From: a virus | Taxonomy: Duplodnaviria; Heunggongvirae; Uroviricota; Caudoviricetes | Reading direction: 5' to 3' (one strand) | DNA length: 8,182 bases | Virus record (IMG/VR): IMGVR_UViG_2695420732_000017 | Shown: piece by piece, positions 1 through 8,182 of the stretch | How positions within the stretch are numbered: position 1 is the first letter of the stretch | Layout: every line of letters begins with the position of its first letter | Notes under the pieces: generated by a model | Database searches by the model: none | What the model was told of the DNA's origin: nothing | Seen by the model: only the letters and a program-made list of their open reading frames with translations | Program-made: the position numbers and the translations under genes

Positions 1-363
1 GCACTGGAGCAGGCGTTGTGGGCCCGTCGGCCGTCCGGCACAATCCATCACAGTGATAAAGGTTCTCAGTATGTATCGCTGGCCTACACGCAGCGGCTTA
101 AGGAAGCCGGATTACTGGCATCAACAGGGAGTACTGGCGACTCGTATGACAACGCGATGGCTGAGAGCATCAATGGTCTTTACAAAGCGGAGGTAATACA
201 CCGTAAGAGCTGGAAAAACCGGACAGAAGTGGAACTGGCCACACTAACGTGGGTGGACTGGTATAACAATCGACGATTGCTGGAAAGGCTGGGCCATATT
301 CCTCCGGCAGAAGCAGAAAAAGCTTATTATGCTTCCATCGGAAATAATGATCTGGCAGCCTGA
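1..363 (+). CDS. IS3-family transposase OrfB (DDE integrase core), C-terminal part; 5' end lies outside the window
   Basis: The reading frame is open from base 1 to the TGA at 361-363. The translation contains HSDKGSQY (second catalytic Asp) and YDNAMAESINGLYK (catalytic Glu followed by Lys seven residues later), the signature of the IS3-family DDE transposase C-terminus. G+C is about half, unlike the adjacent AT-rich island. Confidence 0.85.
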   Translation, partial: ALEQALWARRPSGTIHHSDKGSQYVSLAYTQRLKEAGLLASTGSTGDSYDNAMAESINGLYKAEVIHRKSWKNRTEVELATLTWVDWYNNRRLLERLGHIPPAEAEKAYYASIGNNDLAA

Positions 364-430
364 GTTCACAGATAAAATACTCTCCAGGAAACCCGGGGCG
401 GTTCAGTTTGCCAATTTTTGCGATATAAAT
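1..430 (+). mobile_element. Right-hand portion of an IS3-family insertion sequence; exact terminal inverted repeat not determinable from one end
   Basis: The transposase gene ends at 363 and an IS3-type terminal repeat normally follows within a few tens of bp. The composition switches to AT-rich by about 410-430. The boundary is approximate because the other IS end is not available to pair with. Confidence 0.45.
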
Positions 431-483
431 TTCAATGTCCGAAGAACCATTAATTGTTAATTGATTCTGTATAAGGTATTAAC

Positions 484-1581
484 ATGACAATTTCATATAT
501 TCCTATTCTGAAAGCGAAACGTTCTGAGTTATCAGCTTTATCGCAGCTATCCATTGAAAAGAAATCAAAAATTTTGCCATTACTCGAAATTGAACCAGTG
601 CCAATTGACCCTGATTCAGGTATTGCCTTAAAGAGTTATAACGAGACTCTTATAGAGTTCGGAAAGAAAGTCTCAAAATCTTGCTCAGATATGCAAGGTG
701 TTTATATTGATGGATTATTAATTGAAGAGCATTTTATTTCTCCTGAAGATCATTACCCTATAATAAATGCGGTTAATCAAGTTAGAGATATGGGGATAAG
801 AGTTATTCCTGTCAGTTCACCAACTCGCCCATCTAACTATAAAAGAGCGATTGATGAATTAATGCAGAATGAAATATGCTTGAGATTAACCACGTTAGAT
901 CTGGTTAACCCACAATTAATAACGCATTACATTAATCATCTGGGAATTCCTTTATCAAATATTGATATAATTATTGACTTAAGAGATGAGTTAACCGAGG
1001 ATAAAATTAATTCCGGCGAACTATATACTTTGGCAATGGGATTGATAAACAATCTGGCGCACCTCAATGAATACAGAAAAGTGATTCTTTCTGGGGGTTC
1101 ATTTCCTACAGATCTCAGTGATATTTCTGTTGGTCTATATTCTCAACCTCGAATCGAGTGGATTTTATGGCAGAGTTTAATGAATAGAAAAGAACTTGCC
1201 AGAAATGTGATTTATAGTGATTATGGAGTACAGCACCCCGACTTTAATAGGCTTTCGACGCGATTCCCTAGCGTATCTGCCAGCGTCAGATACTCTGGAG
1301 ATAATGACTTTTGGGTATTTCGAGGAAGAGTAGCTAATCGCTTTGGTTATGAACAATATGGTAAACATAGTGAGGATATTCTTGCTCATCGAGAATATTC
1401 AGGGCCTACATTCTGTGCGGGAGATAGAGACATAGAATATTATGCAAACGAGTATCAAGCCTACAAAGCCAATCCCTCTGGTAACTATAAATTTGGTAGC
1501 CCAGAGGTATGGCGTAGGATTGGGCAAAACCATCACATAACTAAGGTTGTTGAGCAACTCGCCACTCTTTACGGGCTTTAA
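484..1581 (+). CDS. Beta-protein-like (Pfam Beta_protein / NCBI sce7725-family-like) protein of unknown function, 365 aa
   Basis: ATG at 484 is the first start after an in-frame TAA (472-474), with an AAGG Shine-Dalgarno 7 nt upstream. Clean 365-codon ORF, strongly AT-rich (roughly one-third G+C by eye). The N-terminus TISYIPILKAKRSELSAL matches, from memory, the hallmark start of the Beta-protein / sce7725 family. The family call is unverified. Confidence 0.75.
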   Translation: MTISYIPILKAKRSELSALSQLSIEKKSKILPLLEIEPVPIDPDSGIALKSYNETLIEFGKKVSKSCSDMQGVYIDGLLIEEHFISPEDHYPIINAVNQVRDMGIRVIPVSSPTRPSNYKRAIDELMQNEICLRLTTLDLVNPQLITHYINHLGIPLSNIDIIIDLRDELTEDKINSGELYTLAMGLINNLAHLNEYRKVILSGGSFPTDLSDISVGLYSQPRIEWILWQSLMNRKELARNVIYSDYGVQHPDFNRLSTRFPSVSASVRYSGDNDFWVFRGRVANRFGYEQYGKHSEDILAHREYSGPTFCAGDRDIEYYANEYQAYKANPSGNYKFGSPEVWRRIGQNHHITKVVEQLATLYGL

Positions 1582-2119
1582 GTTTAACTCGAACAGCTTC
1601 ACGAAGCTCGCCAACATCCATACTATTGGCGAGTTTTGACCATAAGACGCGTTTAGGTTTATTTTTCAAATTCTGTAGCTCCCCTACATCACTTAATAGG
1701 GAAAGCAATTCATCTTTCCAAAGAAGCATTGTTAAGGAAAGTTTGTCCACTTGTGGATTCAACTTGCTAGTTCGAATTGTTTTTAAATGGATACCTTGCC
1801 GTGCACCTTGCGTAACTTGCTTTATCCCCCACCATGATGGAACTATGCTTAAAGCATCATAAAGATGGCAATCAGAGACAACCAAAGTTACTTTATCCAT
1901 CACTGATGAGTAATGTTGCACCTGCGCTGGTAATCTGAGCAAGTTATCACTCTTGCTCTTCAACTCATAACCATGTATAAGCCCATTGATCACTGCTATA
2001 TCAGCTCTGCTAGCCCCTAGATTCATCGTAAACTCATCAATGATTAGGGTGTCAGGATCTTTATGATGATCTCTCAGAATCTTGGCATGCACAGCCTTTC
2101 TTACATCAATGTCTCTCAT
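1541..2119 (-). CDS. PD-(D/E)xK nuclease-fold protein (sce7726-family-like), 192 aa
   Basis: Open frame on the minus strand with ATG at 2119-2117 and an in-frame stop six codons upstream; stop codon at 1543-1541. N-terminal motifs IIDEF (E29), RADIAV (D40) and GYELKS (E52-x-K54) have the spacing of a restriction-endonuclease-like PD-(D/E)xK core. AT-rich like its neighbour. Shine-Dalgarno is weak. Confidence 0.75.
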   Translation of the reverse strand: MRDIDVRKAVHAKILRDHHKDPDTLIIDEFTMNLGASRADIAVINGLIHGYELKSKSDNLLRLPAQVQHYSSVMDKVTLVVSDCHLYDALSIVPSWWGIKQVTQGARQGIHLKTIRTSKLNPQVDKLSLTMLLWKDELLSLLSDVGELQNLKNKPKRVLWSKLANSMDVGELREAVRVKLKARKEWRVAQQP

Positions 2120-2158
2120 ACCATAGTTGCGCTTTCATCGACTCTCTCAAGCCATGAT

Positions 2159-2167
2159 TCTATATCA
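2159..2167 (-). promoter_or_regulatory. Possible extended -10 element (TGaTATAGA) for an independent promoter of the nuclease-like gene
   Basis: On the minus strand the sequence TGATATAGAAT lies about 40 nt upstream of the ATG at 2119, inside a 305-bp ORF-free gap. No convincing -35 was found, so this is tentative. Confidence 0.3.
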
Positions 2168-2424
2168 TGGTTCGCATGAATGCCATTTGATATGACCAGT
2201 GGTTAAACATTGCACAGAAAAGTGGATGTGTATTTTAACAAAAGCAATGACGGCTAACCATGTTGGTATGTCGATAAAATGTTTCAACGTAAGCATTATC
2301 TGTTCCGCCCTTTCAGACGGCCTCCTGATGTTCTGAGGGTGCAGAATCCCTCCGGTTAAGGATTTAATAAAAATCGTTTCTGATTTAAATCTTCAGTATT
2401 TAGTTGTTAGTCGGTTTATAGCCT

Positions 2425-2736
2425 TTATGCTTCGGCCTTATTTCTCAGCCATACACAAACCGGGCCATCTTCGGTGTCATGTATTGAACCAATAAACCAT
2501 CCATTGCCCTCTGGTCGTTCCGGTTCCCATGCAGAAATATCAGCATCACACGCATCAAGGTCAGCACATCCTTCATCTCTGAAGCAGAGGACGTATTGAA
2601 GATTATTTTCCTCCATCCAGGCGTTAAACTCTTCCGTTGAAATATATTCCCGACCGTCACAGAATTTTTCATATTCAGGATGCGTCCAGCAGCCATATTC
2701 ATCACGTACTACTGGTATTTCTTTAATTTCATTCAT
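2425..2736 (-). CDS. Hypothetical acidic, Cys-containing prophage protein, 103 aa
   Basis: ATG at 2736 sits inside the sequence ATGAATGA, overlapping the stop of the upstream gene by 8 nt (translational coupling). G+C near half, like the prophage backbone. No recognisable domain. Confidence 0.7.
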   Translation of the reverse strand: MNEIKEIPVVRDEYGCWTHPEYEKFCDGREYISTEEFNAWMEENNLQYVLCFRDEGCADLDACDADISAWEPERPEGNGWFIGSIHDTEDGPVCVWLRNKAEA

Positions 2737-2983
2737 TTCTGTTCTCCCACGTTTTCAGACTTTCACCACAGAACGGACAAAATGAAACCCGAACTGGTAA
2801 TTTAGAAAATTCACCGGAACGCAACATCACAAAATCAGGACCGCGAGTTAAACTCTCATTCCAGATTTTGTATATCAGCAGACCTTTTCGCATCGTGTAT
2901 TCAGCATCATGCTCAAGGGACTTTGCCAGTGCTGCACATGGTTCTATCTTGTTGCCATTAACCTGGCATTTTGATTCACTCAC
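2729..2983 (-). CDS. Hypothetical small protein with a C-terminal CPFCG zinc-ribbon-like motif, 84 aa
   Basis: GTG start at 2983 overlaps the TGA of the upstream gene (GTGA) and is preceded by a strong GAGGAGG Shine-Dalgarno 7 nt upstream. Cys residues at positions 6, 16, 69 and 72. Confidence 0.65.
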   Translation of the reverse strand: MSESKCQVNGNKIEPCAALAKSLEHDAEYTMRKGLLIYKIWNESLTRGPDFVMLRSGEFSKLPVRVSFCPFCGESLKTWENRNE

Positions 2984-3402
2984 CGCACCACCTCCTCAAA
3001 ATTCCCCTGATAAAACGCCAGTACGCGCTGCATAACTTCGCTCTTCCGGCACTCGAGACAGATTATGTTCAGACGCCTGTCGTAGCGGCGTATTTCGCCA
3101 TCTGGTAATGACCAGATAAGGTCCGGATCAACCGCAGATGGTTTCTTCAGCTTTGCCCTTGAGAGTTTTTTGCGGGCATTTTGCCAGTCTTTACGAGCCT
3201 GTTCAGACGGGAATAACCCGTAGCCAGAATTGTATACATCGCCACTGGCAACCAGCTCTCTGGCCAGAACGCTCATCAGATATCTTGTTGCCCCAGTTTT
3301 AGTTTCCAGTTGTCGTAACGTCTCGCGCCCACTCTGGCGTACGAGTTCAACAACCTGCCCTTTAATTTTTTCCCGCTCTTCTTGTGTAAAAACTTTTGCC
3401 AC
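2980..3402 (-). CDS. Hypothetical prophage protein, 140 aa, basic
   Basis: GTG start at 3402 is preceded by AGGAGG with a 4-nt spacer. The gene lies directly downstream of the replication initiator in the same operon orientation. Confidence 0.7.
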   Translation of the reverse strand: MAKVFTQEEREKIKGQVVELVRQSGRETLRQLETKTGATRYLMSVLARELVASGDVYNSGYGLFPSEQARKDWQNARKKLSRAKLKKPSAVDPDLIWSLPDGEIRRYDRRLNIICLECRKSEVMQRVLAFYQGNFEEVVR

Positions 3403-3442
3403 AAGCCCTCCTGAAAGTTACCTCATGACCAGAAATTAACAC

Positions 3443-4405
3443 TTACCCCCTGAAGCCCGGCGGAATTTCAGTGTCCGGTTCAGAAATGTGATTCACGCAA
3501 CGCTGCGCAGGCGAACGCCCCAGGCGGATAACCAGTTCATCCCATTTTTCCCGGAGTTTTGCCGGACTCATGATGTTTTTTACCCAGAACGAATCCCGCT
3601 GGAGACGCCCAAACATTTCACAAATTTGTCTGTGAGTTCTGCCATCCAGCATCCGCATTGTGCGAACGTCATTGGCCCATGCTGTCCAGTTGGGTTCTTT
3701 CGGTCTAGTGATCTCGCCATCATAGCTGGCCGCCTGCTCGTAAAGACTCACGATTCGTCCCCAGATCCACTGTGCGCACACCAAATCTTCCTGACTTCCC
3801 CACTGGCGTTTTTTCGCACTGAACACAACCGCGTCAGGGTGTCGGGTTAAAAAATCCTGTTCAGCCGTCTGCGGGTCCGGTTGCGAAGCGTCCGGACAAG
3901 AAGATCTTTTATCTGACGGATCAGGTTTTAATACTGACGGATCGGGGTCAATCATCGCCCCCCTAATCGGCAGTTTTTTATCAACAGTTGATCCATCAAA
4001 ATTTGACGGGTCAACCGTTGAGGGGGCAATATTTGACGGGTCAACTGTTAACTGGTCATTTTTTGCCGGGCTAATTTTTCTTTTCGGTTTATATGACTCA
4101 CGCGCCGCCGCAGCTGCTGCTTCGAGTTTTTCCACATTAAGCCGATAGATATTGCTTACATTACGCCCACCGACCTTACGCTCTTCCTTCGTCAGCCAGC
4201 CCTCTTTCGCCAGTTCTGCAATAGCCGATTTCACTGTGGATTCACTTCTTGCACCGATCTGACGCCGGATAGTTTCAATGGCAGGCCATGACACACCCTC
4301 GTCATTGCTGTAGTCTGCAAGACGGGCCATAACCGCCACCCTGGATAAGATCATGCCGGTGAAGGCGCACCCTTCCCAGACAAGACCATGAAGCTTGCTG
4401 CTCAT
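3443..4405 (-). CDS. Phage replication initiator, lambda O-like architecture (N-terminal winged-helix/HTH, repeat-containing linker, C-terminal domain)
   Basis: 320-codon ORF from the ATG at 4405 (a GTG at 4420 is an alternative start), with a GGGGG Shine-Dalgarno just upstream. The N-terminal segment WPAIETIRRQIGARSESTVKSAIAELAKEGWL is HTH-like. The central region encodes repeated TVDPSN / DPDPS units from DNA direct repeats, as seen in lambda O where the origin lies inside the gene. Confidence 0.8.
   Translation of the reverse strand: MSSKLHGLVWEGCAFTGMILSRVAVMARLADYSNDEGVSWPAIETIRRQIGARSESTVKSAIAELAKEGWLTKEERKVGGRNVSNIYRLNVEKLEAAAAAARESYKPKRKISPAKNDQLTVDPSNIAPSTVDPSNFDGSTVDKKLPIRGAMIDPDPSVLKPDPSDKRSSCPDASQPDPQTAEQDFLTRHPDAVVFSAKKRQWGSQEDLVCAQWIWGRIVSLYEQAASYDGEITRPKEPNWTAWANDVRTMRMLDGRTHRQICEMFGRLQRDSFWVKNIMSPAKLREKWDELVIRLGRSPAQRCVNHISEPDTEIPPGFRG
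3912..4095. repeat. Putative replication origin: four direct iterons (core TGACGG(A/G)TC) plus an adjacent AT-rich stretch, inside the initiator gene
   Basis: TGACGGATC occurs at about 3914 and 3935; the longer TTTGACGGGTCAAC(C/T)GTT occurs at about 4001 and 4031. An AT-rich tract (about 4055-4095: cattttttgccgggctaatttttcttttcggtttatatga) lies beside them. Confidence 0.55.
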
Positions 4406-4427
4406 AAAACCCCCGAACACCGTGCTT

Positions 4428-4853
4428 TTAGTGCATCACCACAGCATTCCCTGCCGGGCCGCCGCGATTCATCTGGTCATACAAAACAACCGCTGACGCA
4501 ACAAAATCGTCGACATCCTTCACCAGCCGATCCCGCCGTTCGACAATCTCCCGGTAATACTCAGAGCTGTGACTGCGCATACGGGCCACCAGCAGAGGCG
4601 GCATTGCCTTTTCGATCGCCGGTAACAGAGCCTGAATTTTTTCAACAGCATCAGGGGTGTCTTTATCCAGCCAACGGAAAATTTTCTGTGTATTACGGGC
4701 CAGGGCTTCCGGATGGCTGTCGTCGTACAGTTCAGGGAACGTCATCCCCAGTTCGAAATAAGTCCGGGCTATTTCAGCTGCAGGAACTTTCTCACCATCA
4801 GGGTATGCCCAGGCATTCATCGCCATGCGGATGTGCTCATGTTTGATTTTCAT
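4428..4853 (-). CDS. ydaT: YdaT-like prophage protein (recalled as DUF1019 / Toxin_YdaT family), 141 aa
   Basis: The N-terminus MKIKHEHI and C-terminus ...VVMH match my recollection of Rac prophage YdaT. The gene overlaps the upstream ydaS-like gene by 17 nt. Confidence 0.7.
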   Translation of the reverse strand: MKIKHEHIRMAMNAWAYPDGEKVPAAEIARTYFELGMTFPELYDDSHPEALARNTQKIFRWLDKDTPDAVEKIQALLPAIEKAMPPLLVARMRSHSSEYYREIVERRDRLVKDVDDFVASAVVLYDQMNRGGPAGNAVVMH

Positions 4854-5160
4854 GAATCATTTGCCTCTTGATGCTTCGGGTATGATCGTTTTCGTCATTT
4901 GGTTGCTTCATCGACATATTCTGCGAATAACATGACGAGCGTCGTAAGTATGTCCAATCAACATCAGGACGAAGTTCTTCACACAGGACACCACCTTTTG
5001 TTGCTCGTTCAATCGCAGGACATCTCTCAGCAGGCAACTGACGTACACCTTTGATCCATTGATTTACGCTTGGAGGAGATACACCTAAAAGCCTAGCCAT
5101 TGCTGATTGCCCACCGACAACAGCACAAGCTCGTTTGAATGAATAGTTATCTTTTTTCAT
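4837..5160 (-). CDS. ydaS: YdaS-like Cro/CI-type HTH protein (Cro analogue), 107 aa
   Basis: ATG at 5160 is preceded by GGAG with an 8-nt spacer; the ORF track's longer version begins at a GTG at 5181 with no ribosome-binding site. The HTH segment QSAMARLLGVSPPSVNQWIKG is typical of YdaS-like proteins. The gene is divergent from the repressor gene. Confidence 0.75.
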   Translation of the reverse strand: MKKDNYSFKRACAVVGGQSAMARLLGVSPPSVNQWIKGVRQLPAERCPAIERATKGGVLCEELRPDVDWTYLRRSSCYSQNMSMKQPNDENDHTRSIKRQMIHENQT

Positions 5161-5187
5161 CGAATGAACTCCAAAAAACACGCAACA

Positions 5188-5231
5188 ATATTAGGCTTAG
5201 CCTAATACAATTGTCAATAGGCTATGCCTAA
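5188..5231 (-). promoter_or_regulatory. Leftward sigma70-type promoter with operator half-sites (TTAGGC...GCCTAA) for the ydaS-ydaT-replication operon
   Basis: Read on the minus strand: TTAGGCATAGCCTA, then TTGACA (-35, plus-strand 5212-5217), an 18-nt spacer containing TTAGGCTAAGCC, then TAATAT (-10, plus-strand 5188-5193). A third operator-like site (attgcctaa) sits at about 5248-5256, near the repressor gene start. Confidence 0.55.
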
Positions 5232-5284
5232 CACATCGAGAGTAGGGATTGCCTAACGCGATGCGCATAGGAGACTATTAAGCA

Positions 5285-5761
5285 ATGCTTAGTGGTAAAG
5301 ACTTAGGCCGAGCGATAGAGCAGGCCATTAACAAAAAAATTGCATCAGGAGCCGTCAAATCAAAGGCGGAAATCGCACGTCATTTCAAAGTCCAACCACC
5401 ATCAATCCATGACTGGATTAAGAAAGGTTCGATAAGTAAAGACAAACTTCCAGAACTATGGCGTTTCTTTTCTGATGTGGTTGGTCCAGAGCATTGGGGG
5501 CTTAACGAATACCCCATACCAACCCCATCCACTTCAGATACAAAAAGTGAACTTTTAGACATAAACAGCCTTTATCAAGCCGCCTCTGATGAAAAAAGAG
5601 CAATTGTGGCTTTCCTCTTATCTGGAAATGCTACGGAGCCTAGTTGGGTTGATCATGACGTTCGCGCCTACATTGCCGCAATGGAAATGAAGGTAGCTAA
5701 CTATCTGAAAAATCAAGAATCAAAACGGAAAAGCCAGAACATCACCAAGACAGGAACTTAA
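5285..5761 (+). CDS. Prophage repressor, HTH DNA-binding protein (RacR/DicA-type functional analogue), 158 aa
   Basis: ATG at 5285 with AGGAG 11 nt upstream. HTH segment KSKAEIARHFKVQPPSIHDWIKKGSIS. Divergent from the Cro-like gene and flanked by operator-bearing promoters. The length (158 aa) fits my recollection of RacR, but the assignment is not verified. Confidence 0.8.
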   Translation: MLSGKDLGRAIEQAINKKIASGAVKSKAEIARHFKVQPPSIHDWIKKGSISKDKLPELWRFFSDVVGPEHWGLNEYPIPTPSTSDTKSELLDINSLYQAASDEKRAIVAFLLSGNATEPSWVDHDVRAYIAAMEMKVANYLKNQESKRKSQNITKTGT

Positions 5762-5775
5762 ACTTATATGGTCCG

Positions 5776-5797
5776 ACGGGAAATTCCTAGTTCCCGT
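5776..5797 (+). terminator. Hairpin immediately after the repressor stop codon (7-bp perfect stem ACGGGAA/TTCCCGT, 8-nt loop); possible terminator or processing site
   Basis: A perfect inverted repeat lies 15 nt after the TAA at 5759-5761. There is no clear U-tract, so intrinsic-terminator function is uncertain. Confidence 0.3.
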
Positions 5798-5855
5798 TAG
5801 TTAACTCCTACTACCTCTCCCACAAACCATCACCTATTAGGTCGCGCCCAAATTA

Positions 5856-5898
5856 TTAGGCATAGCCTATTGACAAGTAATTAGGCATTTCCTATAGT
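5856..5898 (+). promoter_or_regulatory. Rightward near-consensus sigma70 promoter with two operator sites, driving the dicB-type operon
   Basis: TTAGGCATAGCCTA (5856-5869) abuts TTGACA (5870-5875); a 17-nt spacer contains TTAGGCATTTCC; then TATAGT (5893-5898). The 20-mer ttaggcatagcctattgaca is an exact inverted copy of 5212-5231. Confidence 0.6.
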
Positions 5899-6079
5899 TT
5901 TCCCATACCAACCCATCCCGTCCCACACAATACAGGGCAATACCTCGAGTTACCAGGCAGTGGTCAGGGGTTAAGTAGCCAGCCCGAGGCGTAAGAACAT
6001 GACGGCAGGGTTCAACTTTAATAACTATGCAGCAGGTTTTTGTTCCGCTACCCCGGCGTTAAGGGGAAATGAGGTCAGC

Positions 6080-6235
6080 ATGGATACTATCGATCTTGGC
6101 AACAGCGAATCTCTGGTATGTGGCGTGTTCCCCAACCAGGACGGTACGTTCACCGCGATGACGTATACCAAAAGCAAAACGTTTAAAACCGAATCTGGAG
6201 CGCGTCGCTGGCTGGAAAGAAATTCAGGTGGGTGA
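6080..6235 (+). CDS. ydfA: YdfA-like small prophage protein, 51 aa
   Basis: ATG at 6080 with GAGG 5 nt upstream. The ORF track's N-terminal extension back to 5999 lacks a ribosome-binding site. Size and position (first gene after the repressor-controlled promoter) match the Qin dicB operon order as I recall it: ydfA 51 aa, ydfB 42 aa, ydfC 72 aa. Confidence 0.6.
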   Translation: MDTIDLGNSESLVCGVFPNQDGTFTAMTYTKSKTFKTESGARRWLERNSGG

Positions 6236-6236
6236 T

Positions 6237-6365
6237 ATGGATTTCGACACAATCATGGAAAAGGCTTACGAAGAATACTTCGAAGGCCTTGCCGAAGGCG
6301 AAGAAGCTCTCAGCTTCAGCGAATTTAAACAGGCGCTTTCCAGCTCGGCAAAATCTAACGGCTGA
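6237..6365 (+). CDS. ydfB: YdfB-like small acidic protein, 42 aa
   Basis: ATG at 6237 is 1 nt after the ydfA-like stop (tightly coupled). The ORF was missed by the six-frame track because of its size. Translation: MDFDTIMEKAYEEYFEGLAEGEEALSFSEFKQALSSSAKSNG. Confidence 0.5.
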   Translation: MDFDTIMEKAYEEYFEGLAEGEEALSFSEFKQALSSSAKSNG

Positions 6366-6395
6366 TAAGCGAAAACAGCACCGCGAGGAATCAGT

Positions 6396-6614
6396 ATGCA
6401 GAAACGAGAACCCGTCATCATCGCGCCAGACTATACCGATGATGAACTTTATGAGTGGATGCACCAGAAAATTAATGCAGCGCAGGATCTGAAATGGGCC
6501 AATGAAGCCAGGGCTAAGCAGGCTGAAAATCTGTCCGCTCTGGAGCAGGATATCACCAATCTGGAAAAAGCAGCGGCATTAAGCATTGCCAGCATGATTA
6601 CATACCCGCGTTAA
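6396..6614 (+). CDS. ydfC: YdfC-like protein, 72 aa
   Basis: ATG at 6396 with GAGG 6-7 nt upstream. Its 72-aa size and position before the DicF locus match the Qin dicB operon. Confidence 0.6.
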   Translation: MQKREPVIIAPDYTDDELYEWMHQKINAAQDLKWANEARAKQAENLSALEQDITNLEKAAALSIASMITYPR

Positions 6615-6953
6615 TAGCTAACCAACGAAGCTAAGGTTGGTAATTAAGGAGTTCTCCACGGGTAAAGTGGAGTGCGTGCGCCGGACACGGGTGAACATCC
6701 GGCACTGACAGTTTACTGAAAGGATATTTCTCTGAAAAGTCAGAGCATAACGCGAAAGCGCACGGCGAGGTTGCTGGTTCATAGATAGCCTGTCGTTAAA
6801 TTTTCGTCGACCGTGCGCTTCCGGTTGTGGCACTCCGCGAAATGGCGCGGCGGTAAGTATGGCGGGGTTATTTCTTCCCCGTTGAGGACACCGGGTTGTC
6901 AGGTTGACCATACGCTTAAGTGACAACCCCGCTGCAACGCCCTCTGTTATCAA

Positions 6954-7012
6954 TTTTCTGGTGACGTTTGGCGGTATCAGTTTTACTCCGTGGCTGCTCT
7001 GCCGCCCTTTTT
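6954..7012 (+). ncRNA. dicF: DicF small regulatory RNA (Hfq-dependent antisense sRNA of the dicB operon) with its rho-independent terminator
   Basis: The sequence tttctggtgacgtttggcggtatcagttttactccgtggctgctctgccgcccttttt matches my recollection of E. coli DicF almost base for base. The 3' end has a GC stem (GGCGG...CCGCC) followed by TTTTT. It sits between the ydfC-like gene and dicB, as in Qin. Confidence 0.75.
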
Positions 7013-7181
7013 AAAGTGAATTTTGTGATGCGGTGAATGCGGCTATGCGCACGCGGAACAGTTAAAACCAAAAACAGTGTTATGGGTGGATTCTCTGTAT
7101 CCGGCGTTAATTGTTAACTGGTTAACGTCACCTGGAGGCACCAGGCACTGCATCACAAAATTCATTGTTGAGGACGCGATA

Positions 7182-7370
7182 ATGGAAACGTTATTACCAA
7201 ACGTTAATACGTCTGAAGGTTGTTTTGATATTGGTGTTCTGCTCAGTAACCGGGAGTTTACTGAAGATGCCATTAAGATGAGAAAATATGAACCTTATCT
7301 TCTCAATGATAATTCCATACTTTCCAGAATTGCCCTTCTTGAACTTGGTATTATCGGAGAACAGCAGTGA
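7182..7370 (+). CDS. dicB: DicB-like cell-division inhibitor (MinC-dependent), 62 aa
   Basis: ATG at 7182 with AGGA 7 nt upstream. The N-terminus METLLPNVNTSEGCF matches my recollection of DicB. The 62-aa size and position directly after DicF agree. Confidence 0.7.
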   Translation: METLLPNVNTSEGCFDIGVLLSNREFTEDAIKMRKYEPYLLNDNSILSRIALLELGIIGEQQ

Positions 7371-7555
7371 CTTCAGCGTTTGCACTGGTGATGACCGTTT
7401 TTCTTATAACGGGTGAGCCACAAAATGTGATTACCGGAATTTATGACAGTAAGTCATCCTGCATTCAGGTAAGGGACGAACAAAAAATCCCCGGTGAATG
7501 CCTCCCGTTAAAAAAAGTATTGCTGTACCTGAATAACGAAACGCCGGCTGGATAA
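7367..7555 (+). CDS. ydfD: YdfD-like small membrane protein (lysis-associated in Qin), about 62 aa
   Basis: GTG at 7367 overlaps the dicB TGA (GTGA coupling); an alternative ATG lies at 7391. Hydrophobic N-terminal segment AFALVMTVFLITG. Position after dicB matches Qin ydfD. Confidence 0.55.
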   Translation: MTSAFALVMTVFLITGEPQNVITGIYDSKSSCIQVRDEQKIPGECLPLKKVLLYLNNETPAG

Positions 7556-7650
7556 ACCTCCAGCCATATTAACGCCATACCAACGGATTAAAAATGCCAG
7601 CAATGGCAGGGATTTATTCATCCTTAAATCTGTCATGAGGTTAAAACAAA

Positions 7651-8182
7651 ATGAGTAAAGTCTTTATTTGCGCCGCTATTCCTGACGAACTGGCAACAAG
7701 GGAAGAAGGCGCTGTGGCTGTAGCCACAGCCATTGAAGCTGGCGACGAACGCCGTGCTCGAGCAAAATTTCACTGGCAGTTCCTGGAACATTATCCGGCT
7801 GCTCAGGACTGCGCTTATAAATTTATTGTCTGCGAGGATAAACCTGGCATACCCCGCCCTGCCCTCGATTCATGGGATGCTGAATATATGCAGGAAAACC
7901 GCTGGGATGAGGAGTCTGCTTCTTTTGTCCCGGTTGAGACTGAATCCGATCCGATGAACGTCACTTTTGACAAGCTGGCCCCTGAAGTACAGAACGCTGT
8001 CATGGTTAAGTTCGACACATGTGAAAACATCACCGTTGATATGGTGATTAGCGCACAGGAATTGTTGCAGGAAGACATGGCAACATTCGACGGACATATC
8101 GTTGAAGCGTTGATGAAAATGCCAGAAGTTAACGCCATGTATCCGGAGCTTAAGCTGCATGCCATCGGGTGGGTTAAGCATA
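7651..8182 (+). CDS. Hypothetical acidic prophage protein, 3' end beyond the window (at least 177 aa); possibly YdfE-like
   Basis: ATG at 7651 with GAGG 10 nt upstream. Hand translation (MSKVFICAAIPDELATREEG...) runs without a stop to the window end. The six-frame track omits it because it has no stop inside the window. Confidence 0.6.
   Translation, partial: MSKVFICAAIPDELATREEGAVAVATAIEAGDERRARAKFHWQFLEHYPAAQDCAYKFIVCEDKPGIPRPALDSWDAEYMQENRWDEESASFVPVETESDPMNVTFDKLAPEVQNAVMVKFDTCENITVDMVISAQELLQEDMATFDGHIVEALMKMPEVNAMYPELKLHAIGWVKH

Follow-up and report, generated by a model that had tools for sequence, protein, structure and literature searches.

The beta gene and its surroundings

The window, that is, the whole 8,182-nt stretch of DNA analyzed here, opens with the right end of an IS3-family element (positions 1..404, + strand), which includes the C-terminus of a transposase at 16-363 (rve_3/rve_2/rve); thousands of E. 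coli records list this transposase under the name 'IS3 family transposase'. Downstream of the element lies a beta-family gene (484..1581, + strand), which begins with an ATG and encodes 365 aa. A second gene, of the sce7726/Phage_P4_cII family, reads toward it from the opposite strand (1541..2119, 192 aa), and, judging from the coordinates, the two convergent coding regions share 41 nt at their 3' ends (1541..1581). The GC content is 0.372 for beta and 0.409 for its partner, compared to 0.476 for the remaining prophage DNA (window 2425-8182), in keeping with the original prediction of an AT-rich-encoded protein of 365 aa.

Between the end of the IS element and the start of beta there is a native leader of 79 nt (405..483, + strand), which is homologous to IS-free genomes from position 405 onward. 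In an O121 lineage, an IS3-family element is found elsewhere within the same intergenic region. A scan of the leader for sigma-70 promoters yielded nothing convincing or above chance, and it is possible that the IS element, 79 nt from the start of beta, has switched the gene off in the genome from which the window derives. The intergenic region upstream of the nuclease gene (2120..2424, - strand) contains a candidate promoter, ATGGCA-18-TAGAAT at 2186..2157, which is a consensus match only. Overall, promoter and terminator scans around the pair did no better than chance, and a search against Rfam returned nothing within or near the two genes.

The label 'Beta-protein-like', initially attached to the 365-aa product, was borne out by the Pfam HMM PF14350 (Beta_protein), which matched at 3.8e-52 (178.3 bits vs a cut-off of 27), with residues 5-356 covering profile positions 1-341 of 342, i.e., its full length. 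The PADLOC models for PD-Lambda-2_C also matched over the full length (PDLC03983, 1.8e-41; PDLC03984, 1.7e-38), while the match to the PADLOC model for P4 'beta' was weak (2.1e-4, residues 4-40). A further match was to PHROG 9159 (5.5e-145), whose function is given as unknown. The RefSeq entry WP_000156213.1, 'beta family protein', is identical to the window protein. The gene is thus a real member of a known family, under a name that RefSeq already uses, and not a new kind of thing. Its closest homologues reached E-values down to 2e-236, and an exhaustive profile search retrieved 4,336 cluster representatives at E ≤ 1e-3 (clusters defined at 50% identity), nearly all of them single-domain proteins of 350-380 aa; the ORF at 484..1581 is therefore not a chance reading frame.

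Other resources added little to this assignment. No second Pfam family matched beta at E ≤ 10, NCBIfam contained no model that matched the Beta-family proteins tested (the one from Sorangium among them), and a PDB search with the Beta-family profile gave nothing significant, the best E-value being 0.81. Taken with the structure comparison described below, the Pfam and PDB searches revealed no homology to a housekeeping enzyme.

A predicted TIM barrel with near-invariant polar residues

AlphaFold confidently predicts that beta folds into a divergent TIM barrel (pLDDT 93), followed by a C-terminal beta-hairpin/helical subdomain, and the predicted barrel superposes on solved TIM barrels, with their alternating beta/alpha architecture. 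Proteins with this fold are almost always enzymes, whose active sites lie at the C-terminal ends of the barrel strands. In none of the papers that we found on the Beta family was a fold or a mechanism assigned.

We examined residue conservation in two alignments, one of 29 homologues (with identities as low as 25%), which contained 25 invariant columns, and one of 229 diverse homologues, P4 beta included, from which percentages were calculated. In the larger set, Y5, E15, P32, D76, P109, R134, D165, P208, R223, D246, Y270, W343 and H351 were 98-100% conserved; among these, P32, P109, R134, D165, P208, R223, D246, Y270 and H351 reached 100%. Slightly lower values (89-94%) were observed for K10, K12, D161, R198, R240, Y247 and H350. 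The N-terminal signature of the YIPILKAKRSE type, to which the original prediction had drawn attention, is encoded at 496..528 (+ strand, codons Y5-E15) and has the pattern Y5-x-P7-x-L9-K10-x-K12-R13-x-E15. It is real, ranking among the best-conserved stretches of the family: Y5, P7, L9, K12 and E15 are invariant in the 29-homologue alignment and 89-99% conserved among the 229 sequences. In the model, it corresponds to barrel strand beta1 (residues 5-10), the loop after it and the first residues of helix 1 (13-20). The signature was said to be the only recognizable feature of the protein, which proved wrong, given the predicted barrel and about 20 near-invariant polar residues across the 229 homologues.

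The location of these residues is suggestive. In the predicted structure, D76, R134, D165 and D246 are located at the C-terminal ends of barrel strands, K10, K12 and E15 come after strand 1, and H350 and H351 are in the last helix. The near-invariant polar residues look like a candidate active site or ligand pocket, and with three acids, several Arg/Lys side chains and a His-His pair, they might serve to bind metal and phosphate. Since a predicted TIM barrel is combined with an invariant set of Asp, Arg, His, Lys, Glu and Tyr residues, we consider a catalytic role of beta no less likely than a passive one. The earlier statement that beta has no catalytic motif or nucleotide-binding loop thus holds only for named motifs (there is no visible Walker-type loop and no second Pfam family).

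The DNA transglycosylase DpdA (PDB 7ui4) and TGT were matched or surpassed, as structural neighbors of beta, by dozens of unrelated TIM barrels, and both DpdA and the defense enzyme QatD (a TIM-barrel nuclease of the TatD family, PMC13434339) gave only generic matches. The HH pair of beta sits in the C-terminal helix and not in an HxH motif on strand 1. These comparisons bear on the possibility that the pair resembles a restriction-modification system, with beta being a nucleic-acid-modifying barrel (akin to DpdA or TGT) that marks self, and the nuclease cutting unmarked incoming DNA. The generic character of the structural matches speaks against such a specific affinity, as does the lack of sequence similarity between beta and solved proteins in the PDB profile search; moreover, the relatives of the pair have been described as abortive-infection or toxin-antitoxin-like systems. 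We regard this explanation as very unlikely, also in view of a natural knockout described below.

A convergent nuclease partner with a conserved 3' overlap

The product of the neighboring gene had been termed 'nuclease-like', and the analysis bore this out. The 192-aa protein matches the NCBIfam model NF033832 (sce7726 family) over its full length at 1.7e-56, the PADLOC model 'cll' at 2.4e-28 and also Pfam PF26915 (Phage_P4_cII). It combines a PD-(D/E)xK nuclease fold with a helical C-terminal domain; the alpha-beta-beta-beta-alpha-beta core and the E...D...(D/E)xK motif are both present. Alignment conservation locates the catalytic constellation at E29...D40...E52-x-K54 (then Q66), encoded at 1958..2035 (- strand). 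These residues are invariant in the partner alignment and 99% conserved among 79 partners, P4 cII included, and the fold with an intact motif was found in all the gene architectures that we examined. P4 cII itself matches NF033832 at 2.5e-44, while a PDB sequence search with the 192-aa protein by itself found nothing. The window protein is thus a full-length member of NF033832/PF26915, and NCBI labels the E. coli pair as 'beta family protein | sce7726 family protein'. The names sce7726, sce7725 and Phage_P4_cII have no function attached to them. As for sce7725, the named neighbor family of sce7726, the name could not be connected with beta, since the Beta proteins tested matched no NCBIfam model.

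Retaining one genome per species, we assembled 78 loci with relatives of beta and searched them with custom-built HMMs. These came from Enterobacterales, Aeromonas, Bacillota, Bacteroidota, Nitrospirota, Myxococcota (Sorangium), Acidobacteriota, Planctomycetota, Chloroflexota, Patescibacteria and other groups. An sce7726-type ORF was directly adjacent to beta, convergent and 3'-overlapping in all 77 testable loci; in the remaining one, the contig ended 104 nt past beta. Overlaps measured between 8 and 140 nt, with a median of 50 nt and a value of 41 nt in the window, and the relative frame of the two genes was identical in 77 of the 78 loci, implying that the overlap was inherited from a common ancestor and not re-created time and again. 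As a control, we considered other convergent neighbor pairs in the same loci, which overlapped by at least 8 nt in 10 out of 42 cases, a proportion that is only indicative, given the crude ORF calls.

The two proteins also appear to have diverged in step. Pairwise identities among beta proteins correlated with those among the nucleases (r = 0.87), a value that none of 999 Mantel permutations equaled, and the correlation persisted among distant pairs (r = 0.72). Public gene calls with Pfam tags showed the same arrangement. On plasmids, annotation places both genes together in 15 records (among them plasmids of Actinomycetota, Alphaproteobacteria and Acinetobacter), and the HMMs added one more; in a Marinibacterium plasmid, the sce7726 ORF is at the expected position but lacks annotation. 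In the Gordonia phage Powerball, gene 33 is a homologue of beta and gene 32, annotated as 'exonuclease', is a homologue of sce7726. Overall, beta almost never occurs without the nuclease gene; with no housekeeping-enzyme homology either, neither of the outcomes that the original prediction had named as refuting it came about. We encountered one exception, a Sarcina plasmid in which the PF14350 protein is encoded beside a CPBP-type protease.

What varies is the DNA upstream of beta. Clustering of the neighboring ORFs, followed by their identification, distinguished several layouts. The bare pair, consisting of beta and the convergent sce7726, occurs in the window, in other Enterobacterales, in Aeromonas, in several Bacillota and in Sorangium. 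In at least 36 loci of the PD-lambda-2 type, beta and its convergent partner are preceded by genes for a HigB_toxin and an Xre/Peptidase_M78 protein; in about 11 others, by genes for an M78-like protein and a protein of ~200 aa; in a few more, by some different gene that abuts beta. The layout tracks the clades of beta, and the invariant residues of beta are alike across clades joined to unrelated toxins. In the clade of the window, there is no abutting upstream gene (at least 200 nt are free) and no conserved small ORF upstream of beta, and a Gop homologue is absent from all 78 loci; accordingly, this clade is truly bare. Likewise, neither the window nor the IS-free reference locus contains HigB-like or Xre/M78-peptidase genes; in the reference locus, a non-coding gap of 557 nt separates beta from hokD. 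The conserved unit is the beta/nuclease pair and not the variable toxin genes.

The prophage in the window is of the Rac/Qin lambdoid type; beyond the pair, it contains racR, ydaS/ydaT-like genes, a replication initiator, DUF977, DicF and dicB. The slot occupied by the pair has the replication genes on one side and the hokD/nin-like region on the other. This position, along with the fact that some viral annotations call the partner 'DNA repair protein MmcB-like', might suggest that the pair is a housekeeping accessory of phages and mobile elements, with a function in recombination, repair or replication and not in defense. We find this quite unlikely. The slots occupied by the pair are unrelated to one another: in a second subtype from E. 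coli, the pair is flanked by the lysis genes and by the terminase gene Nu1, and other pairs are found in the P4 hotspot, next to an actinophage integrase or on plasmids, as well as in the chromosomes of many bacterial phyla, Patescibacteria included. In E. coli, only 93 out of 5,426 complete genomes carry the pair (92 of them at ≥ 99% identity), and many of the carriers named by serotype are O26, O111, O121 or O103. Furthermore, related three-gene systems protect against phage. In 16 other species, the bare pair is flanked by many phage or mobile-element genes and, in some instances, by genes for BREX (PglZ, BrxL), IetAS, DrmD (DISARM) or methyltransferases.

Relation to known defense systems and possible function

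Two published anti-phage systems contain a Beta-family protein. The first is gop-beta-cII of P4 (Rousset et al. 2022), which similarly comprises a PF14350 protein and then a convergent gene of the sce7726/cII family. [quoted passage not shown] The phage accessory gene orf184 triggers the toxicity of the system (bioRxiv 10.1101/2023.04.06.535777). Sequence identity to the window proteins is low (~20% for beta, ~27% for the nuclease), but all positions with 100% conservation in the wider Beta family are retained in P4 beta, as is the nuclease motif in cII. Like the window pair, the P4 system is non-essential cargo of a mobile element. There are also clear differences: gop has no counterpart upstream of beta in the window, cII is longer (264 vs 192 aa), and P4 beta and cII do not overlap, being separated by a 27-nt gap with the annotated cII terminator. 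A mutation of that terminator, studied by Ghisotti in 1990, reportedly caused a temperature-sensitive phenotype that was ascribed to lowered beta expression.

The second system is PD-lambda-2 (Vassallo et al. 2022), composed of a HigB-like A, an Xre/M78-peptidase B and a Beta-family C; the window lacks A and B, and its beta is ~29% identical to the PD-lambda-2-type beta clade. In this system B is toxic and is neutralized by A, while C is needed for defense and dispensable for neutralization (PMC9519451). As noted above, loci of this type also bear a convergent, overlapping sce7726 gene, which the published three-gene definition omits. Among the matches listed in a search with a profile of PD-lambda-2-type beta proteins, none was from E. 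coli. Judging from coordinates and from all the PD-lambda-2-type loci examined, an sce7726 gene would be expected beside PD-lambda-2C in ECOR42 as well. By coordinates, the published clone (PMC9519451) ends ~396 bp beyond the beta-family gene. If ECOR42 has the nuclease gene, the clone would be devoid of its promoter and of the part encoding the catalytic N-terminus; PD-lambda-2 would then have defended without an intact nuclease, in which case the nuclease may not be the effector. Based on matches to single models, the system definitions in current use would probably not call the window pair, given that it has neither gop nor A and B.

Insertion sequences provided natural variants of the pair. 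In E. coli PEC240, an IS1 element interrupts beta at about codon 197, yet the sce7726 protein is identical to that of the window and the 305-nt upstream region contains only two differences. In the sister strain CAU16175, beta is intact and IS1 is found upstream of the nuclease gene, at a distance of 162 nt. As far as a single genome sequence can tell, PEC240 is viable without beta although its nuclease gene is intact, which speaks against beta as an antitoxin that the nuclease makes indispensable. The protective-modification model mentioned earlier fares no better, as a viable knockout of beta would be unexpected under it.

This variant is relevant to the most conventional interpretation, namely a type II toxin-antitoxin system in which the nuclease is a constitutive toxin, beta its directly binding antitoxin, and the pocket of beta a binding surface instead of an active site. 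The antitoxin-like behavior of P4 beta toward Gop, the tight co-evolution of beta and the nuclease, and the residence of the pair in mobile elements would all agree with such an arrangement. The PEC240 allele would not, with its nuclease protein unchanged and the region upstream essentially the same, and further arguments point in the same direction: toxicity in PD-lambda-2 is neutralized without C, the two genes are convergent and do not form a co-transcribed operon, and the same invariant beta residues are found in clades associated with unrelated toxins. On balance, we judge a toxin-antitoxin function of this sort to be rather unlikely; it is, like the restriction-modification and non-defense alternatives, less likely than the explanation that follows.

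The explanation that we favor, and that we would be equally prepared to see confirmed or overturned, is that the bare beta/sce7726 pair represents the core of the gop-beta-cII/PD-lambda-2 defense family, with beta as the sensor or regulator and the nuclease as the effector. The pair is AT-rich accessory cargo of a Rac/Qin-type lambdoid prophage and a co-inherited two-gene module, the same module that forms the unvarying core of P4 gop-beta-cII and PD-lambda-2, both abortive-infection systems, but here without any upstream toxin gene. Sensing or regulation would fall to beta; its barrel pocket, which may bind metal or phosphate, could bind an infection-derived ligand or act on it catalytically. 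Beta would then license the partner nuclease, and the licensed enzyme would damage DNA, with the consequence that infection is aborted or a superinfecting phage excluded. Convergent transcription through the shared 3' ends might couple the expression of the two genes.

A role of beta as 'sensor or regulator' was already put forward in the original prediction, and it is compatible with the data on PD-lambda-2C (PMC9519451), with the suppression of Gop by P4 beta (PMC9122126) and with the IS1 knockout; the argument offered at that time, i.e., the larger size of beta with respect to the nuclease, carries no weight. Two counterpoints to the favored explanation should be mentioned. P4 beta counteracts Gop rather than cII, and the PF14350 member on the Sarcina plasmid exists without sce7726.

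A more ambitious version of the favored reading can be envisaged, which we deem possible although doubtful. The pair would be the ancestral, universal engine of a widespread defense family, beta being a new TIM-barrel enzyme or sensor that controls the nuclease, the overlap an antisense or transcription-interference switch, and the upstream genes (Gop, HigB/Xre-peptidase and others) interchangeable add-ons. If this were true, the three-gene definitions of gop-beta-cII and PD-lambda-2 would have mis-assigned or omitted core components, and the scope of the proposal would extend to ~4,300 protein clusters, from Enterobacterales to Patescibacteria and actinophages.

Irrespective of how far this goes, the Beta family is large and belongs to two experimentally validated anti-phage systems, and it can now be credited with a predicted fold, a putative active site and a partner that is near-obligate and arranged in an unusual way. 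Attention is also drawn to a fourth gene, unlisted in PD-lambda-2, which by the published coordinates would be truncated in the functional clone. Even if the pair turned out to be inactive, an unusually conserved convergent gene overlap would still have been documented. The two-gene minimal version found in prophages of Shiga-toxin-producing E. coli should be easy to test, and the predicted fold, the candidate pocket and the near-obligate nuclease partner shift the focus for dissecting gop-beta-cII and PD-lambda-2.

Gene content of the beta/sce7726 loci

By its published definition, the defence system PD-lambda-2 consists of three genes and does not include the sce7726/P4-cII nuclease gene. 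However, in all the PD-lambda-2-layout loci that we examined, coding for a HigB-like protein, an Xre/M78 peptidase and a Beta-family protein (comparison locus L089, local coordinates 2492-5666; also L016, L018, L020 and about 33 others), this convergent, overlapping nuclease gene was found as a fourth gene. Going by the published coordinates, it would be truncated in the functional PD-lambda-2 clone.

We could also recognize a third layout, with an M78-peptidase-like protein and a protein of ~200 aa devoid of Pfam matches, both encoded upstream of the beta/sce7726 core (L040, 4141-5977; likewise L051, L056, L058, L060, L066, L071, L074, L076, L078 and L079). The sole Beta-family gene found without an sce7726 partner was on plasmid p1 of Sarcina sp. 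JB2 (L086, 1760-3466), where it encodes a shorter protein (324 aa) and adjoins phage tail genes and a gene for a CPBP/Rce1-like intramembrane protease. As for nomenclature, the neighbour of sce7726 bears the name 'sce7725 family' at NCBI; when the NCBIfam models were run against all the Beta-family proteins tested, including that of Sorangium sp. So ce1000 (L044, 5974-7774), no match was obtained.

The pair in other phages and prophage slots

In Gordonia phage Powerball (L088, 2438-4250), gene 32, labelled 'exonuclease', encodes an sce7726-family protein and overlaps convergently with gene 33, a beta homologue, meaning that the beta/sce7726 module is present in actinophages too. Its neighbours there are the gene coding for the integrase and a toxin-antitoxin pair, HicAB. 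A second E. coli subtype of the two-gene pair, roughly 53% identical (L081, 3134-4763; GCA_023722765.1), occupies a different prophage accessory slot, flanked by the Rz lysis gene on one side and the terminase gene Nu1 on the other.

Insertion sequences around the pair

The right end of an IS3-family element occupies positions 1-404 of the window, with the transposase C-terminus at 16-363, and the start codon of beta lies 79 nt downstream of this insertion. In a set of 5,426 complete genomes of E. coli, all the top matches listed had homology from window position 405 onwards; consequently, the IS3/beta-leader junction of the window was not encountered among them.

In E. coli PEC240 (NZ_CM168014.1; L099, 1580-3451), beta is interrupted by IS1 at about codon 197 (window ~1069-1076), and the sce7726 protein is identical to that of the window; PEC240 is a viable strain with a natural beta knockout. 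Two further independent IS events were detected around the same pair. E. coli CAU16175 (L100, 3377-4071) carries IS1 at a distance of 162 nt upstream from the nuclease gene; in E. coli O121:H19 (CP022407.1; L091, 1285-2447), the inserted element belongs to the IS3 family and lies close to hok, some 513 nt upstream from the beta gene. The beta/sce7726 locus appears to be a recurrent target of IS elements.

Prophage backbone and base composition

At higher coordinates than the pair, the window encodes a DUF977 protein (2980-3402) and a replication-initiator-like HTH protein (3443-4420). The segment 4428-5761 holds the repressor gene racR and, in divergent orientation to it, a ydaS-like (Cro/HTH) and a ydaT-like gene; the families of these two carry a toxin label in Pfam. 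The antisense sRNA DicF is found on the plus strand at 6956-7007 (75 bits against Rfam RF00039). At the corresponding locus of strain ML775, DicF lies upstream of the annotated dicB, an arrangement typical of Qin/Rac-type prophages.

The GC contents of beta and the nuclease gene (window 484-2119) are 0.37 and 0.41, lower than the 0.476 observed elsewhere in the window (positions 2425-8182). This low GC is consistent with the pair being cargo gained separately from the prophage backbone.
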